Shown here in pieces: positions 3,690-49,369 of a DNA stretch of 64,000 nt. The first letter of the stretch is position 1, and each line of letters opens with the position of its first letter. This DNA is from a virus (taxonomy: Duplodnaviria > Heunggongvirae > Uroviricota > Caudoviricetes). The position numbers were made by a program, and so were the translations under genes. Under the pieces are notes generated by a model. It worked only from the letters and a program-made list of their open reading frames with translations, had not been told where the DNA came from and did no database searches. The stretch lies in the IMG/VR virus record IMGVR_UViG_3300033463_000046. One strand, given 5' to 3'.

Positions 3690-3735
3690 GAGTAATGGGG
3701 AGAAATCCCCACTCTCACCCCTTTATTTGTAGGTG
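3690..3735 (+). terminator. intrinsic terminator
   Basis: Hairpin gagagt..gggga-GAAA-tcccc..actctc directly after the TGA, followed by a T-rich run. Confidence 0.5.
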
Positions 3736-3739
3736 TGAT

Positions 3740-4575
3740 GCTACTTTGTGTGAAAGGTAAAGTTGGAGGTATGACACTGATAAGCGATGATAACGGAAAA
3801 TCGTACAAGTTGCTCAACCTATGTGTACCTCCATACTTAAACTTTTCTGGATACTTTCAACTGCTCGAAAAGCCGAGAGGTTTCGAAGTGATTCGAGTAG
3901 TTAGATTGTAATACTATTTGTAGGCTGGGTGTTAAACGTTCGCAAAGAGTCGAATAGGCTCGAGCGTCGGCGCACGACTCCGACCCTACAAAACCCTGTT
4001 CTCCCGATTTCAAACAATCTTTGGGAATAGGGCGACCTTTATAGGTCAAACTCCGCTAAAGGCTCCAGGGCCCAAGTGAGCCAATAGTGGAACAACTCAA
4101 CAAACAACAAACAACAACAACAATTTAAAAATTCAAGTTTAACCCGTAGATGTATTTTGTCAATATTCCCTTAATATCAATCTGCTTTCGAGCAGTTTGT
4201 TGTTGAGAATAAACTCAATTTCTTAAGCAGTAATGCTTAGAGTTGCACTCCAGCGAGTGAATAACTTCCCAAGATCTTGAGGGCACCAGTTTCCCACCAA
4301 CTCCAAAGACTCTTTTAGAGCCTTTCTTGGTGGTTTTAGGTGTAAAAGACAACTTTTCTCGCTACAGAGAGAAGACCTTTTATAATGTGTAAATATAGCA
4401 ATAATCTGTACACATTATTAAGTCAGAGAGGATTTTGCTAAAGACTTTAAAAGCGGTTGAACCTCGCATTTACTCTGCAGAGTATTAAGGTCTCGAAGAA
4501 GTTGGAAGGACTTCAAGATCGGAAATGTAGCGCTAGGGCCGAGGAGAAATCCGAAGCTTCTCGGCTCGTTTTTTA
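3740..4575 (+). ncRNA. candidate large structured non-coding RNA
   Basis: About 840 nt with stops in all six frames and GC above the coding regions. Many local hairpins and a (CAA)n tract; bounded by terminators at 3690-3735 and 4538-4575. Confidence 0.3.
4538..4575 (+). terminator. intrinsic terminator
   Basis: Stem gccgag/ctcggc followed by tcgtttttt. Confidence 0.45.
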
Positions 4576-4899: not shown

Positions 4900-6165
4900 C
4901 TTTAAAATTAATTATTCACCAGTTACCATTATAATGCGTAACTTATCATTCTTAAGTCTCGTAAGAGAAACTGAGAATTGTTTTTCTCTCATTGAGAGAA
5001 CTTATGAATACCTACAATTTTACAACATGCCGAGAAACTCTAGTATCTTGGTAATTTGACCAGTTGCCAGGAGAAATTCATGAGTACAAATTGTCCCCAT
5101 CGCCTAGTAGGCGTTTTAGGCTAAAGAAGTCTTGGTCAACACAAGAGTGTTTGTGTAGACTCTGATGCCTAGGGGAATCGTTGGCAGAGAACTGCAGGTT
5201 GAAGTTGAGAATAGTATTCTTAATGAAGTAGCTAGGGGATGTGTGGTAGCGTACATGTCTTTGACTTAAACAGCTAGGAATTAACTTGTCAACACTCTGA
5301 CAATTATTTCCGAACTTCTCAATATGATAAGTGGTATCCTCATGACCGGCCACATTTAAAATGGTTTTAAGAGGTGTAGTAACTGAGAGAAGTAAATCTC
5401 CGGACTTGTAGAAACCGAAAGGGAGTATGTAAGGAGGACTCTTTGCCCAGAAGAGGATAATAAAACTTGGTTAGTCATTAGGACTGGGCTAAATGCACGG
5501 TTTATGATGCTGAAAGAGCCGTAGAGGCATAATGTTATAGACAAGAACATAGGAATTACCAACTCCGAAAATATTGTTTAGGAACATTACATTGAAAGCT
5601 AAGGTCTGTGGATTGCTGTAAAATGTCAACAATCCTACATCGTGGTTGATGGGAGACACAGAGAAACACAGACCAAATACCATTTTGCGTGCAGCGACCT
5701 TCAATGCGTCAAAGCACTTTCCCAAGACAAAGAGGAGCATAATTGGGAATGGTACTTAAATTGCCGTAAAATAAAGAAACGGAGCTTCGCGAGCGGGGAC
5801 CTACGCGCAACCAATCAATGGTATGCTGGCCATCATGGAAACCGCTCACTTTTCTTTGAAAGTATGTTCAAATAACATATTACTCCGATCCAAGTGATCT
5901 CCCTACTTCGGAGGATCCCGCGATTGCTTGCGTACGAAGGCTTTCTTGGGACGAAATGTGGTTATGGCTTTTCAACTACTGATGTAAGTCTTGTAAAAAG
6001 TGGAACTCCCGCCAAAAAAGAGGGCAGTAAGGACCAACTGGAAACTATCTGAGAACCATTTCGGGGCAGCCTTGAGCTGATACCGTTTGGCAGGTTGATG
6101 AACGTAAGGTTAGCTAGGTCTATTGGGAGGTGATGCTATTCCTCCCGCTTTTGTGAGAAACCAAA
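4900..6165 (+). ncRNA. candidate large structured non-coding RNA
   Basis: About 1.27 kb with no frame open beyond about 90 codons and all three stops in every frame. CTAG/TAGG-rich, GC about 45-50%. Ends with hairpin gggagg/cctccc plus gcttttgtg at 6125-6155. Confidence 0.3.
6125..6155 (+). terminator. intrinsic terminator
   Basis: gggagg-tgatgctatt-cctccc then gcttttgtg. Confidence 0.4.
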
Positions 6166-6177
6166 AACTCGAGATAT

Positions 6178-6546
6178 ATGAAGGTAATTGTAACAAGCTG
6201 GATGTTTCCTAATGAAAATGGTGGAAACGATGATAGACCAAAGAGTATTGAGAGAATTTCTTCCTCAATCGAAGACTTAAAAAGATTTCTTAAGGATTAC
6301 TATCCTGAGAAAGATAAATTTGTCTTCAAGAAAACTCTCTTGCATCTGCAAGTGATGGGAACTCCTGATGAGAAGCTCTTCGCCGATAGTGATGATATCA
6401 CTCGTTATTACAACGGTGACGGATTTAAGTATCTGGAAGAATGTCTGAAGGATGACTCTCTTGGTCAGTGTGTTGCTAAGATCTACCGCGAAGGCTGGGA
6501 ACAGCATGCGACGTACTATCTCTTCCAGGTCAGGAATCTTCATTGA
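6178..6546 (+). CDS. hypothetical protein
   Basis: 122-aa ORF in track. Confidence 0.5.
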   Translation: MKVIVTSWMFPNENGGNDDRPKSIERISSSIEDLKRFLKDYYPEKDKFVFKKTLLHLQVMGTPDEKLFADSDDITRYYNGDGFKYLEECLKDDSLGQCVAKIYREGWEQHATYYLFQVRNLH

Positions 6547-10110: not shown

Positions 10111-10692
10111 GTGCATTTTAAAACTCTCATTATGCAAATAGTAATTAAAAACAAAAAGTGTTCAATTGACAAAATCAAGAGAGAATATCCTGATTGCGTC
10201 ATTATTGATGTAACGAGTAAAGCTAAGGATGAGTTCAGAAAGCTTAGTCCTTTTTATCCTCATTGCAGTATTCCTGTTAATCCTATTTCTGAACAATTTT
10301 TATTTGGAGCGTCAGTAGAAGGAATTTGGCAAGGTTTGAAAGTATTTGAAGATGAAGGGCCAAGTCTATCTAGTCTTCATAATTCTTCAATGCGTGGATT
10401 AAAGAGAACAACTCGTGTACATGGTCGTTGCTTGGGACATGCTTATGGCGACATAATTGGCAAGAAATATACTTTACTTGGTTACGTAGAAGCTCGTAAG
10501 AAATTGTATGTTCCAGCCTATAAATGGGTGTTAGAGAATAAATGTGCTGATTTAGTTAATAAGATTCGTATCATAGCTCAACATAAGACAGTGATACTTC
10601 TTGATTATAATACTAATGAAGACATTGAAAATGGTAATAAACCGTTATCTCACGCTGCATTAATTAAAAAATATATTAATAAAGAAATTTAA
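10111..10692 (+). CDS. hypothetical protein
   Basis: 193-aa ORF in track. Confidence 0.55.
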   Translation: MHFKTLIMQIVIKNKKCSIDKIKREYPDCVIIDVTSKAKDEFRKLSPFYPHCSIPVNPISEQFLFGASVEGIWQGLKVFEDEGPSLSSLHNSSMRGLKRTTRVHGRCLGHAYGDIIGKKYTLLGYVEARKKLYVPAYKWVLENKCADLVNKIRIIAQHKTVILLDYNTNEDIENGNKPLSHAALIKKYINKEI

Positions 10693-24596: not shown

Positions 24597-24811
24597 CAGT
24601 CAATGCGGTTAATGTAATACTTGAAAAGGCCTGGGAGATGAAGTCTCAGGCCTTAATATTTACAGACAAATTGTTTGCTATTTGGCCAAAAGACTATGAT
24701 TGGAAGGTATATGACAATTTGAAAATATTATGTATATTTGACAAAACCTCTAAAGCAGAATCATATTTGGATACAGATAGTATCAGAAAAATTGTAATAA
24801 AAGATGAGTAA
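24593..24811 (+). CDS. hypothetical small protein
   Basis: 72 aa; ATGA overlap with the upstream gene. Confidence 0.45.
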   Translation: MTVNAVNVILEKAWEMKSQALIFTDKLFAIWPKDYDWKVYDNLKILCIFDKTSKAESYLDTDSIRKIVIKDE

Positions 24812-26012
24812 CATTCATTGGTTAAAAACCAACAACACTTTTCGAAAGGTTGAAGGAGATTTCAGTACCATTGACTCAGTTCCAGTAGGTATTTATAATA
24901 TTGGATTGAGTATGACAGGTTGGTATCTGGAAAAGTACGCAGACAAATTCACTTTCGATTACAAAATGTACGGATTACAGACAGAGTTCTGTAAGCACGT
25001 ACTGAAGACTTATCACAACACTATTGGTAACTTTGGTATTATGTTAACTGGTACTAAAGGAACTGGTAAAACTGTAACAGCTAAAACTTTAGCAAATGAT
25101 TTTAATCTTCCAGTAATTATTGTCAAGGATATGGGAGATTCTAATCAAAGCATGATTGAGTTCCTGAGTGGATTCAATTTTGATTGTGTTTTATTCCTTG
25201 ACGAGTTTGAGAAGAATTTCTCTGATAAAGATTCTACTATCTTACAAATAATGGATGGTGTCTACAACATTGGTTATCGCAAGATATTCTTGTTAACAAC
25301 TAATGAGATGACAGTAAATGAGAATCTTATTGGTAGACCATCTCGTATTCGTTATGTAAAGAGATTCGGAAACTTGGACATCAAGACTGTTGAAGATTAT
25401 CTTAATGATGAACTTCAAGTTCCAGAGGCTCGTCAAGAGCTTATTGATTTCATTGATACCTTAACTATATCTACTATAGATATTCTTAAGACTATTGTCA
25501 ATGAGGTTAATATCCATGGAATGGCTGGTCTTCTTAAGGCTAAGGAATTCTTTAATGTTAGCACTCTTGAGTTTAACTATTCATGTGTTCGTGGATATGT
25601 TGAGGAAGGAGAAATGATGAATGAGCCTGACAAATATAACATGAAGAATTTCTTAAAGGATGTTGAGAAGTATGAGAATCCTATTTGGGAACCTGGTTTC
25701 TATCGTAGTACTCCGAAGGAACAGTGGACACAATCTCAACAGAAGGAATTTGATGAATGGCAAGAGAATCGTAGAAAGACCTTCAATGGTGTTCAACGTA
25801 TGAATTGTCATGCTAACTGTCGTTTTAACCATCTTAAGGTTGGAGGAGAATTTGATGGAGAAGAAATTGTGATTATTGATATTAAGAAGAATGTTGTTGT
25901 AACTCGTTATGATGACTACTTCTATTGGTATTACATTTCTAATCCTGCTAAGAAACCTTCATTATATGGTGGAGGATCAAGTGAAGACTTTGTAAGATTC
26001 TTAGACTATTAA
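24804..26012 (+). CDS. AAA+ family ATPase
   Basis: Walker A GIMLTGTKGTGKT and Walker B VLFLDEFEK. Confidence 0.7.
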   Translation: MSNIHWLKTNNTFRKVEGDFSTIDSVPVGIYNIGLSMTGWYLEKYADKFTFDYKMYGLQTEFCKHVLKTYHNTIGNFGIMLTGTKGTGKTVTAKTLANDFNLPVIIVKDMGDSNQSMIEFLSGFNFDCVLFLDEFEKNFSDKDSTILQIMDGVYNIGYRKIFLLTTNEMTVNENLIGRPSRIRYVKRFGNLDIKTVEDYLNDELQVPEARQELIDFIDTLTISTIDILKTIVNEVNIHGMAGLLKAKEFFNVSTLEFNYSCVRGYVEEGEMMNEPDKYNMKNFLKDVEKYENPIWEPGFYRSTPKEQWTQSQQKEFDEWQENRRKTFNGVQRMNCHANCRFNHLKVGGEFDGEEIVIIDIKKNVVVTRYDDYFYWYYISNPAKKPSLYGGGSSEDFVRFLDY

Positions 26013-26019
26013 AAATATA

Positions 26020-26490
26020 GAAGAGGGGATGTAGGCTTGAAAGCAGCCATCATCTAAGGAGTTCCGAGTGGAGAGCGTGGGTAAATACCCTTGAACCTGT
26101 AAGACTAGTATGCAGGGAAGATCGCTAAGTGCACCAGGAAGTAGTAGTGTGAGATGTCCTGGGAAACCACACGGATTTGAAGCGCGGATTTCAGCGAGTA
26201 ACCTTCCTCAAGTCTTTGGCAGCATAGCTGCCAAAGCAAGGCTGAAATGCTGAGGGTTCCGAGGTGGCTCAATGTATTATCTATGTTGTCGGAGATTGTT
26301 TATGTGTTAGGCCCGAAAGTACAGGCGGAACCTGGGCTTAAAAGAAAACACTACGTGATAGTGTATGGGAGTATACTCTGAAAGAAGCGGTATATGCTCG
26401 TCAGTTACTGCGAATCACCTCTGTCTGACACTCAATGCACATAAGCGCCGTTGGAGGATTAGGCGTAAAAGCACACCCTCTTCTTTTTAA
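26020..26490 (+). ncRNA. candidate structured ncRNA (about 470 nt) closed by a 9-bp terminal helix
   Basis: 5' gaagaggg (about 26024) pairs with 3' ccctcttc (about 26480) then ttttt. Internal perfect hairpins include ctttggcagc-atag-ctgccaaag. No ORF; GC-rich relative to the flanks. Confidence 0.35.
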
Positions 26491-26495
26491 TTATT

Positions 26496-26873
26496 ATGAA
26501 TTACCGTGATTTTCATCCAGGTGATATAGCTCTTGTATACGGTAGTCCTAAACGAATTGAACGTGTAGATAGAACACACGTTGCTACAAGAGCTGATAAT
26601 GATAATTTAGAACTGTGGGCATATTCTGAAGATCTACGACCTATAATCCACTCTGATAAGCTTTGGCTATTAGATTTGGGTTTTGCATACAAGGACGATT
26701 ATTATATCTATGATGTTAACGACAGGTACGTTGTTTATTGGAAACCAATTAACTGCATTGTAGAAGATCGTGAGGATACACATCCATATCGCAAAAGGTG
26801 TAGAACATTAGGAGATGTCCAACAGTTCTTTTATCAAATTGCTAATTTTGAATTACCATTACATGATAGCTGA
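26496..26873 (+). CDS. hypothetical protein
   Basis: 125-aa ORF. Confidence 0.5.
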   Translation: MNYRDFHPGDIALVYGSPKRIERVDRTHVATRADNDNLELWAYSEDLRPIIHSDKLWLLDLGFAYKDDYYIYDVNDRYVVYWKPINCIVEDREDTHPYRKRCRTLGDVQQFFYQIANFELPLHDS

Positions 26874-48787: not shown

Positions 48788-49369
48788 GGTCTTCCTATTA
48801 AATGGGGCTGACAGGATTAGACGGATAATGAAGGTAATAAGAACATGCAAAGGCTGTATGGAAAGACATACAAATCAATTAAATGGCAAGAACAATGTTT
48901 CTTTCGCCATCACAAGCTACAGAGTAGCTGCGTGAGGCGTGGGGTCGTGATTAACCCTATCATCCAATAATCACAAAGTCTACGATTCTCAGTGTCTCCG
49001 ACTATAAACACAGCAACTGAGTGGTGGCAGGTGCGACTTCGGTCAATCCCCCAGTCATTGCCTAAGACTTTAAAAAAGGCACTGGTGAAGAAAACACTCC
49101 AAATTGAAAAGCATGTACAATTCTTATAGAATAGTTGTTGCGGACGGCGGTTCGATTCCGCCCAGTTCCACTCCTGTGATCTGACGGAGCATGCGGTCAC
49201 TAAAAGGCATGCGTCAATTCTCACTTAGACTCAAGAAGTGATAGGTTGTACAACTGAAGGGAATGAATTTTTTGCAGGTAAGGAAACCGCCATCTCAAGT
49301 TTTCTAATCTATAAATCATAAAACTAGAGAAAAGGGTAAGTAGGTGTACGGGACACCTACGTAAATATA

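Follow-up and report, generated by a model that had tools for sequence, protein, structure and literature searches.

Fragments of ribosomal RNA (rRNA) are imitated outside the ribosome by the leaders of ribosomal-protein mRNAs, which copy an rRNA protein-binding site (PMC10931766). Phages carry structured non-coding RNAs of their own, two of which, GOLLD and ROOL, are reported from a tRNA-adjacent context (PMC12286853); another, pseudo-ToxI of phage ΦTE, reportedly neutralises a toxin by mimicry of a host RNA (PMC3475682). Here we analyse an element at positions 26019–26488 of a 64,000-nucleotide stretch of Caudoviricetes DNA (IMG/VR record IMGVR_UViG_3300033463_000046; hereafter the window, meaning the whole stretch). 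Its two ends are predicted jointly to rebuild the GTPase-associated centre (GAC) of 23S rRNA (helices 42–44, or H42–H44; Escherichia coli 1048–1111), with a closing helix, P1, in the place of H42. Very probably the element is an rRNA GAC mimic that also carries a module resembling the sarcin–ricin loop (SRL) and belongs to a large family.

Resemblance to the GTPase-associated centre

BLAST comparison with E. coli 23S rRNA matched window positions 26027–26060 to 1055–1088 (29 of 34 identical), a segment comprising H43 and the junction that follows it, and positions 26463–26476 to 1091–1104 (12 of 14 identical), which comprise H44. In E. coli numbering, G1048 lies at 26020, G1062 at 26034, C1082:G1086 at 26054:26058, U1090 at 26062, G1091 at 26463 and C1102 at 26474. 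Between U1090 and G1091 the 5′ strand of H44 takes an insertion that spans 26063–26462. The H43-like loop reads UGAAAGC at 26038–26044 (family consensus UAGAAGC), with a G at the position of A1067 and with C1072 at 26044. The features of rRNA H44 that we looked for, a GUAAUA hexaloop and the pairs G1091–C1100, C1092–G1099 and G1087–C1102, appear in the window as GC-GUAAAA-GC. Beyond H43, H44 and the SRL, BLAST against E. coli 23S rRNA gave no significant similarity, and a suspected colinearity of long stretches of the insert with domains II and III of 23S rRNA (H46 among others) found no significant support in the same comparison. The parts of the core are as follows.

26019–26488, + strand: whole element, a putative stand-alone GAC(+SRL)-mimic RNA running from the P1 5′ arm to the U-tract; intergenic, a peak of G+C, no open reading frame (ORF), single copy
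26019–26027, + strand: P1 5′ arm, AGAAGAGGG, equivalent to the distal stem of 23S H42 (E. coli 1047–1055); 9 bp with 26476–26484
26029–26053, + strand: H43-like hairpin, equivalent to E. coli 1057–1081; from E. coli identity, the match to the large-subunit (LSU) rRNA model and covariation
26054–26062, + strand: GAC junction, C1082-U-A-A-G1086 and then G1087, A1088, G1089 and U1090; from the family alignment
26063–26065, + strand: 5′ arm (UCC) of P-ins, the insert helix that branches from H44; pairs with GGA at 26456–26458
26456–26458, + strand: 3′ arm (GGA) of P-ins; pairs with UCC at 26063–26065
26459–26462, + strand: family-specific linker before G1091, here UUAG; UUUG or UUUA in most members
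26463–26474, + strand: H44-like hairpin, G1091–C1102, GC-GUAAAA-GC-A-C, with A1095 at 26467 and the family-specific A1101 at 26473
26476–26484, + strand: P1 3′ arm, CCCUCUUCU, equivalent to E. coli 1104–1112; pairs with 26019–26027
26484–26488, + strand: U-tract after P1, read from the sequence, followed by the ATG of the next ORF at 26496

A first-pass annotation of the window had proposed a discrete folded RNA at this position on the strength of an end-to-end closing helix and a T-tract, together with perfect internal stem-loops, but had not recognised its identity as a 23S GAC copied in two separated parts, with a sarcin–ricin-like hairpin embedded between them. The helix is present: AGAAGAGGG at 26019–26027 is perfectly complementary over 9 bp to CCCTCTTCT at 26476–26484, and TTTT comes next, the T run occupying 26484–26488. 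As stand-alone proof such a helix fails, being at chance level: the window holds 32 perfect 9-mer inverted pairs at spacings of 380–520 nt, against about 57 expected from Markov resamples of the same window. Nor can the T-tract be read as a terminator, for a terminator scan reports none at 26476–26488, and P1 is a long-range helix closing 448 nt, not the local hairpin that an intrinsic terminator needs. The annotation thus reached the right conclusion on weak grounds. Because these single-sequence signals are weak, the case for an RNA had to rest on related sequences, and it is the comparison of homologues that supports a discrete non-coding RNA, folded and delimited by the end-to-end helix.

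Protein coding, recoding included, is ruled out by stops in all frames and by indel lengths. Every frame of the element is closed, as the first-pass annotation had seen, with 5–12 stops of at least two kinds in each, so that reassignment of a single stop codon opens none; a recoded ORF over the element, which that annotation had said would speak against an RNA, was found in no frame. Among homologues of the element, only a minority of indels are multiples of three. A related phage at the same locus (our label L001; IMGVR_UViG_3300028048_000050, its ATPase 66% identical to the window's) has a GIY-YIG-type ORF at 5856–6209 with two in-frame TAG codons (…NDY*RSR…, …NEL*TYGH…), which suggests that TAG is reassigned in that phage. 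The ORFs of the window are readable in the standard code.

A family in phages, plasmids and genomes

Scanning viral contigs for the 5′ junction motif brought in seven more unrelated lineages, and an independent scan with the 3′ (H44) motif gave at least 120 loci; among the 120 listed, 92 have an H43 module 41–365 nt upstream. A first motif derived from the insert found only the same contig, a 3′ motif at the boundary of insert and H44 gave only chance hits, and similarity searches with the element or its 12-kb surroundings found no match among GenBank phages. Pooling viral contigs, cultured phages, plasmids and genomes (metagenome-assembled ones included) yielded 108 distinct cores with inserts of 41–396 nt, that of the window being the longest. 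An insert of 0–396 nt at the apex of P-ins makes a single covariance model awkward, and pattern scans and counting were used for the family. Alignment columns fixed by the search patterns are uninformative, and the statistics below rest on columns free to vary.

An ungapped core alignment of 76 columns and 104 sequences was assessed for the GAC secondary structure together with P1 and the helix that closes the insert. Paired cells amount to 91.3%, compared with 67.1% in shuffles (0 of 500 reach the observed value) and 32–52% with slid partners; the covariation score is 0.60 versus 0.14 in shuffles, and 20 of 25 pairs have changed on both sides. In P1, all eight counted pairs show such compensatory changes and 88% of cells are paired. 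All four Watson–Crick types occur at several of its positions, the sequence being unconstrained save for pairing. The H43 stem (1057–1065/1073–1081) is 92% paired in the same alignment, with double changes in six of eight pairs: 1057:1081 is AU or CG, and 1058:1080, paired in 98%, is UA, GC, AU or CG. P-ins has at least three contiguous pairs in 97 of the 108 members, against about 17 with shuffled partners, and double changes in four of four pairs.

The tertiary core is retained as well. Across the family the 1082:1086 pair is CG in 52 members, UA in 38 and AU in nine, U1060 occurs with A1088 in 106 of 108, and 1084–1090 is nearly invariant. The H44 stem is 100% paired, with 1092:1099 changed from CG to UA in three members. 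The same three (L011, L017 and L026) account for the variation in the triple 1072·(1092:1099), which is C·CG in the other 105 and U·UA in these, 108 of 108 without exception. We take this covariation to be that of the base triple joining both hairpins of the rRNA domain. Conn, Gutell and Draper reportedly described the 1072/1092/1099 triple in 1998 as a covarying tertiary contact of the GAC domain, for which crystal structures are said to exist from Conn et al. and from Wimberly et al. in 1999. The GAC tertiary contacts are found here as sequence covariation, and the three-dimensional fold of the element is a predicted one. Together, these comparisons identify the element, by covariation, as a structured RNA with the GAC fold.

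Two features set the family apart from rRNA genes. Position 1101 is A in 24 of 24 members and U in 82 of 84 true 23S genes, and the linker before G1091 is UUUG in 13 members, UUUA in nine, UUAG in one and CUUG in one; both counts refer to the 24 members not ascertained through the 3′ pattern. No other significant similarity to 23S rRNA lies near the element or the stand-alone loci. This signature of A1101 and linker, with no 23S nearby, means that the element is not part of an rRNA gene. A true LSU rRNA gene or fragment was rejected for the window copy on the same points: H44 is split by the insert, no contiguous 23S surrounds it, and 1101 is A, not U. A scan of GTDB genomes returned chiefly true 23S genes (archaea, Nitrospira, Dehalococcoidia and others), which shows the UCUAAGGAG junction to be a natural rRNA variant. 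Stand-alone copies in GTDB come from gut Clostridia and Eubacteriales bins, Flintibacter muris, Muribaculaceae, Ca. Limenecus and Nitrospira. In the Ca. Limenecus bin (L087:4000–5450), a single tRNA array contains two distinct members separated by 1.2 kb, one with an insert of about 283 nt and the other of about 115 nt, the only duplication seen.

Three cultured phages carry complete copies, each within an unannotated gap: Cronobacter GAP32, Aeromonas 4_4572 and Pseudomonas pf16, where the element is flanked by tRNA-Asn and tRNA-Pro. Plasmids of Aromatoleum aromaticum EbN1 and Methylobacterium indicum also have complete copies. BLAST with the 5′ module, the only module examined in these genomes, also hit Serratia BF, several Erwinia jumbo phages and Xanthomonas XbC2. 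No annotation covers the element in the deposited phage and plasmid records inspected. The first-pass annotation had recommended an Rfam search; in Rfam 15 neither the window's element nor 15 family loci match any family at gathering thresholds, and a permissive search (E up to 10) found nothing relevant over the element apart from a weak local match of 26027–26076 to positions 1096–1145 of the LSU rRNA model (E 0.054). RNase P, group I and II introns, GOLLD, ROOL, 6S, SRP and tmRNA were rejected as identities, none of their covariance models matching. A single relative is recognised by Rfam: the insert-free L088, which lies in a tRNA array and scores 69 bits as LSU 1074–1162.

Copies at the window's own locus were reached through homologues of the neighbouring ATPase at graded distances. 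Full-length syntenic relatives are L009 (86% ATPase identity), L285 (83%), L011 (74%), and L287 and L289 (both 72%); with the window they make six full-length copies in two clades that are about 58% identical. The first-pass annotation had stated that its proposal would fall if the end complementarity were not conserved in homologues, and P1 is retained with compensatory changes in these five diverged relatives. At an ATPase identity of 67% or less, no GAC element was found among the relatives. In L010 (ATPase 82% identical), an 87-nt mini version at 3704–3790 retains P1 and the H44 loop region but only the 3′ strand of H43; with the 5′ strand missing, it is probably degenerate. L001 has at 5186–5340 an element of about 150 nt with its own 12-bp closing helix and no GAC modules; it shares AACCUGUAA…GCARG…AAGUGCAC…AGUAAC…CCUUCC with window positions 26093–26207, in the first domain of the insert, and could be either an independent RNA nested in the window's insert or a remnant left after loss of the GAC frame. 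Size therefore shifts very fast at this one locus: 396, 355 or 87 nt, about 150 nt without GAC, or no element.

Such turnover, together with the clear derivation of the sequence from rRNA, is what one would expect of a functionless, decaying relic of host 23S rDNA. We consider that reading scarcely credible, because compensatory changes preserve the fold in over 100 diverged copies from unrelated phages and plasmids, and these copies share derived features absent from rRNA (precise excision of 1048–1111 and closure by a new helix, an insertion site at 1090/1091, the UUUG linker and A1101) and stand in a constant strand relation to tRNA genes. A tRNA gene lies within 200 nt of 56 of the 108 elements, often at 0–7 nt, and within 500 nt of 62, and in all 62 it is on the same strand. 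This adjacency and co-orientation suggest that many members are probably co-transcribed with neighbouring tRNAs and released by tRNA-processing enzymes.

The window belongs to a 196.7-kb metagenomic contig, k141_8582193 (ENA ERZ27257207), whose source looks like a large phage. Its 64 kb encode 33 tRNAs (32 on the + strand) along with a phage-borne tmRNA at 48804–49173 (73 bits), an unusually dense region of translation RNAs in which the GAC mimic is one further non-coding gene; AAA ATPases, helicases and many ORFs of unknown function make up other content. The element is present once, in a 483-nt gap between an AAA-ATPase ORF (24804–26012) and a 125-aa ORF (26496–26873), with a G+C of 0.44–0.48 against 0.30–0.37 in the flanks. 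We looked in the window for a partner gene encoding a ribosomal protein, translation factor or toxin and found none.

The position just ahead of an ORF raises the alternative of a cis-acting leader, in which the rRNA-like fold would bind uL11 or uL10–bL12 and so control translation or termination of the downstream gene, here the 125-aa ORF that starts at 26496, 12 nt beyond P1. In the window's clade, P1 and the U-tract do end 8–12 nt before the ATG of the small ORF, and the one use of rRNA look-alikes that is established is their mimicry in mRNA leaders (PMC10931766). Elsewhere in the family the downstream neighbours vary: often a tRNA at 0–7 nt, sometimes nothing, and otherwise unrelated ORFs. 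In no member examined do rplK, rplA or rplJ adjoin the element, and the Rfam ribosomal-leader families are unmatched. uL11 is not known to autoregulate. The Nitrospira and Nitrospirota copies (L094:2790–3060, L070, L089, L110 and L090) have a conserved insert of their own and a long P1 followed by a U-tract; when their neighbourhood was examined for ribosomal-protein operons, a mobile-element context was found instead, the genes alongside coding either for SSB and an SLT transglycosylase or for an SF1 helicase and Uma2. Their setting is integrated or conjugative-element-like, neither phage nor ribosomal-protein operon. Membership in the ribosomal-protein leader class was rejected on these neighbours (AAA ATPases, small ORFs, tRNAs, SSB/SLT) and on the lack of a leader-family match, and we consider regulation in cis distinctly unlikely, favouring an RNA that acts in trans.

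The insert and its sarcin–ricin-like hairpin

A consensus fold of the six full-length homologues, constrained by the GAC pairs that the family supports, contains 117 pairs with 91.7% of cells paired and 33 pairs changed on both sides; slid controls reach 38–45% and 5–12 pairs. The finer inner helices are moderately supported, coming from six sequences in two clades and from a structure derived from the same alignment. Unconstrained RNAalifold on the six sequences was discarded since it mispairs the GAC strands, and its UCUAA/UUGGA and UCC/GGA (26173–75) helices are contradicted by the wider family. The insert divides as follows.

26068–26071, + strand: 5′ arm (GUGG) of helix Pa, which pairs with CCAC and encloses insert domain I; moderate support, few pairs
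26072–26166, + strand: insert domain I, with a helix AGCG 26074–26077/CGCU 26123–26126 and a hairpin at 26134–26162; from the constrained consensus fold
26167–26174, + strand: 3′ arm of Pa (CCAC, 26167–26170), then 5′ arm of helix Pb (ACGG, 26171–26174); compensatory changes in the subfamily
26188–26248, + strand: helix AUUUCAG 26188–26194/CUGAAAU 26242–26248 around the hairpin at 26214–26236; kept in six of six homologues, with two one-sided changes
26309–26339, + strand: SRL-like hairpin with stem 26309–26314/26334–26339; from the module count and the covarying stem
26349–26363, + strand: small hairpin CACUA-CGUGA-UAGUG in the 3′ part of the insert; double changes in four of four pairs among six homologues
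26375–26425, + strand: irregular long hairpin in the 3′ part, limits approximate; 12 pairs, six with double changes, 86% paired, moderate support
26448–26451, + strand: 3′ arm (CCGU) of Pb; pairs with ACGG at 26171–26174

Large-insert members form a subfamily with the common motifs AGUGGAAG and CCACA(C/G)GGAA. In it, Pa GUGG/CCAC becomes GAGG/CCUC in L117, and Pb ACGG/CCGU becomes AGGG/CCCU in L203, L275 and L117 and AAGG/CCUU in L153. Within insert domain I, double changes affect three of four pairs of helix 8 and three of ten of helix 11 among the six homologues. The perfect 10-bp internal stem-loop on which the first-pass annotation had leaned exists, as CTTTGGCAGC-ATA-GCTGCCAAAG at 26214–26236, and is not conserved: none of the five syntenic homologues has it, not even the closest, L011, which is 88% identical. 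This hairpin is a lineage-specific insertion, seen also in the identical Logan contigs L007 and L008.

The best-conserved module of the insert resembles a second rRNA element. In the window, a bulged-G AGUA (26318–26321) faces GAA (26328–26330) below a C–G closing pair and the loop AGGC (26323–26326), and UUAA follows. Defined as GUAC-N4-GGA flanked by a stem of 6 bp or more, the module occurs in 11 of 111 inserts where 0.38 would be expected by chance; all 11 are among the 19 inserts of at least 240 nt and stem from about six lineages. Their stems are 92% paired, versus 66% in shuffles, with a covariation score of 0.68 versus 0.20, and the stem of the E. coli sarcin–ricin loop fits the same register. 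L009 matches E. coli 2651–2668 at 16 of 18 positions, and the exact sequence GUACGAGAGGA is found in L289, L203, L016 and the Methylobacterium plasmid pVL1_2, which carries the module and lies outside the 11 of 111 count. These four have the canonical GAGA tetraloop (G2659–A2662, the site of sarcin, ricin and EF-G). Four others have GGGA, two have AGAA, and the window and L011 have AGGC in its place, the window retaining the bulged-G module and the C–G closure. The large forms would thus hold look-alikes of both rRNA elements of the docking site for translational GTPases in one RNA. A second widespread insert type, unlike the SRL-bearing one, has CACCCCG-N4-CGGUAAGGC-N5-YCCC directly before a UUUGG linker and is carried by pf16 (L366), Aeromonas 4_4572 (L368), the Aromatoleum plasmid (L369), L242, L092 and L137.

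Inserts this diverse, spanning 41–396 nt and including at least two recurrent types, could themselves be the functional part, a cargo RNA for which the GAC serves only as a sturdy and possibly uL11-stabilised frame. That L001, at the syntenic locus, keeps part of the insert-like sequence without the GAC modules fits this arrangement. The GAC modules, however, are the sole feature common to all members, their tertiary-contact bases are conserved far past the need of a generic clamp, minimal inserts (41–54 nt) or none at all (L088) occur, and the best-conserved insert module in several independent lineages is the SRL-like one, again an imitation of rRNA. We regard a mere cargo frame as unlikely.

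Proposed role and known systems

Selection in the family is strongest on the fold and the tertiary core, which recognition by uL11 fits best. uL11 binds the isolated 58-nt RNA domain 1051–1108, thiostrepton binds the uL11–RNA complex at A1067 and A1095, and uL11 is required for activation of RelA. Isolated GAC and SRL oligoribonucleotides reportedly bind EF-G (Munishkin and Wool, 1997). We propose that the RNA would act in trans, as a decoy or sponge for molecules that recognise the ribosomal factor-binding site; its likeliest direct ligand would be uL11, possibly together with uL10–bL12. Either as a stalk-base-like particle or as naked RNA, it could divert GAC- or SRL-directed proteins from host ribosomes during infection, candidates being host toxins, RelA and translational GTPases. 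The phage might benefit through neutralisation of rRNA-directed abortive-infection toxins, or through hijacking or blunting of translational GTPases or the RelA stringent response; diversion of a GAC/SRL-directed host factor or toxin would be the likeliest gain. Toxins with such targets are on record: Tre23 ADP-ribosylates H44 at 1095–1098, impairing the EF-G GTPase, and the VapC20/26 toxins and ricin attack the SRL (PMC8661411).

Taken as a whole, the explanation that the element is a stand-alone, + strand, non-coding GAC-mimic RNA acting in trans as a decoy has, in our estimate, slightly better than even chances, and the decoy mechanism considered by itself is evenly balanced. A further-reaching version, in which phages and plasmids from many bacterial phyla bear a replica of the factor-binding site that engages host uL11 or stalk proteins as a decoy and so represents a previously unrecognised class of counter-measure made from rRNA, we put forward tentatively, as falling somewhat short of an even chance. 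One ORF of the window, 10111–10692, matches DUF6939 (E 1e-61) and, weakly, the NADAR antitoxin of DarT1 (E 3.5e-4) and may encode an ADP-ribose-removing enzyme. It would be of interest if the role of the RNA concerns ADP-ribosylating toxins.

Several observations weigh against this interpretation. The bases that contact factors and thiopeptides are relaxed in comparison with rRNA: unbiased subsets have an A at position 1067 in 85% of members and at position 1095 in 75%, and the window itself has G at 1067. This relaxation speaks against a strict factor or toxin decoy. The SRL-like loop of the window, AGGC, is neither GNRA nor GAGA, so that it is not obvious that this copy preserves strict recognition of the EF-G, ricin or Tre23 type. 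Binding of uL11 could be perturbed by U1101A and by the insert that interrupts H44 in its 5′ strand. Many invariant columns of the family are fixed by the search patterns, an ascertainment bias, and no ribosomal protein or translation factor that might serve as a partner is encoded in the window or beside the element. Scans called neither a σ70-type promoter nor an intrinsic terminator adjoining the window copy. The minimum free energy (MFE) of the single sequence (26020–26492) is unremarkable on the + strand (z-score −1.17) and better on the − strand (−2.74). We assign the + strand because of the similarity to rRNA, the G–U pairs and the co-orientation with tRNAs; as all other evidence favours that strand, single-sequence folding energy is here uninformative or misleading.

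The evidence for the GAC fold applies equally to a spare part or modifier of the ribosome, an RNA that would join 50S subunits or their assembly intermediates to give phage-specialised ribosomes, for example as a competitor for stalk proteins, as their carrier or as a substitute for a damaged GAC. The element sits amid phage translation genes (tRNAs, tmRNA), and ribosomes can exchange their stalk proteins uL11, uL10 and bL12. No sequence for docking to the 50S subunit is seen: P1 is constrained by pairing alone, the lower part of H42 with its kink-turn is not conserved, and no phage-encoded ribosomal proteins lie nearby. We therefore hold incorporation into ribosomes to be highly unlikely and retain the trans-acting decoy as the working explanation.

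If that explanation is true, the family would interfere with host translation or defence in a new, RNA-based way, and a recurrent unannotated gap in phage tRNA arrays would be explained. The cultured carriers GAP32, pf16 and Aeromonas 4_4572 open the element to deletion and assay. For annotation pipelines this is a new RNA family, whose members otherwise go unannotated or are scored as isolated LSU fragments, as L088 is. It also provides a natural, compact and evolutionarily sampled model of the GAC in which insertions of 41 to 396 nt are tolerated at one position of H44. We found no published description of a phage or plasmid mimic of the GAC, the SRL or rRNA, in a literature coverage that is incomplete and allows for prior publication.

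The nearest precedents are the rRNA-mimicking leaders of ribosomal-protein mRNAs and the RNA mimicry that phages use as counter-defence, of which pseudo-ToxI is the example. Pseudo-ToxI shares the logic of a decoy and imitates an antitoxin repeat, not rRNA as the element does. GOLLD, ROOL and the T4 species 1 and 2 RNAs are, like the element, structured, phage-borne and often adjacent to tRNAs; they are not known to resemble rRNA, and the element is without a match to them or to any other family in Rfam. With the 23S GAC itself (H42–H44, 1051–1108; the L11-binding domain or thiostrepton loop), the element has in common the helices, the junction and loop sequences and the covarying contacts. 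It differs in being closed by a helix of its own with free sequence, in the helical insert of 41–396 nt that interrupts H44, in A1101 and the UUUG linker, in its less conserved A1067 and A1095, and in being borne by phages and plasmids. Its hairpin shares with the sarcin–ricin loop (23S H95, E. coli 2653–2667) the bulged-G AGUA/GAA and the C–G-closed tetraloop and departs from it in the AGGC loop of the window, in the free sequence of the stem, in the conserved UUAA that follows and in its distribution, present in 11 of 19 inserts of at least 240 nt and in no shorter one. The ribosomal-protein leaders, such as the L10(L12)4 leader that mimics H42 and the L1 site in the leader of the L11 operon, are short cis segments of host operons that copy a local motif; the element imitates a whole tertiary domain, with an SRL in addition, lies in mobile elements and tRNA arrays unlinked to ribosomal-protein genes, and matches no Rfam leader. 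Outside the ribosome, the only rRNA look-alikes known so far have been short regulatory sites within mRNAs for ribosomal proteins. In this family a whole tertiary domain of 23S rRNA, in some members with a second functional element, appears to have been excised, re-closed and selected as an independent gene in more than 100 phages and plasmids.

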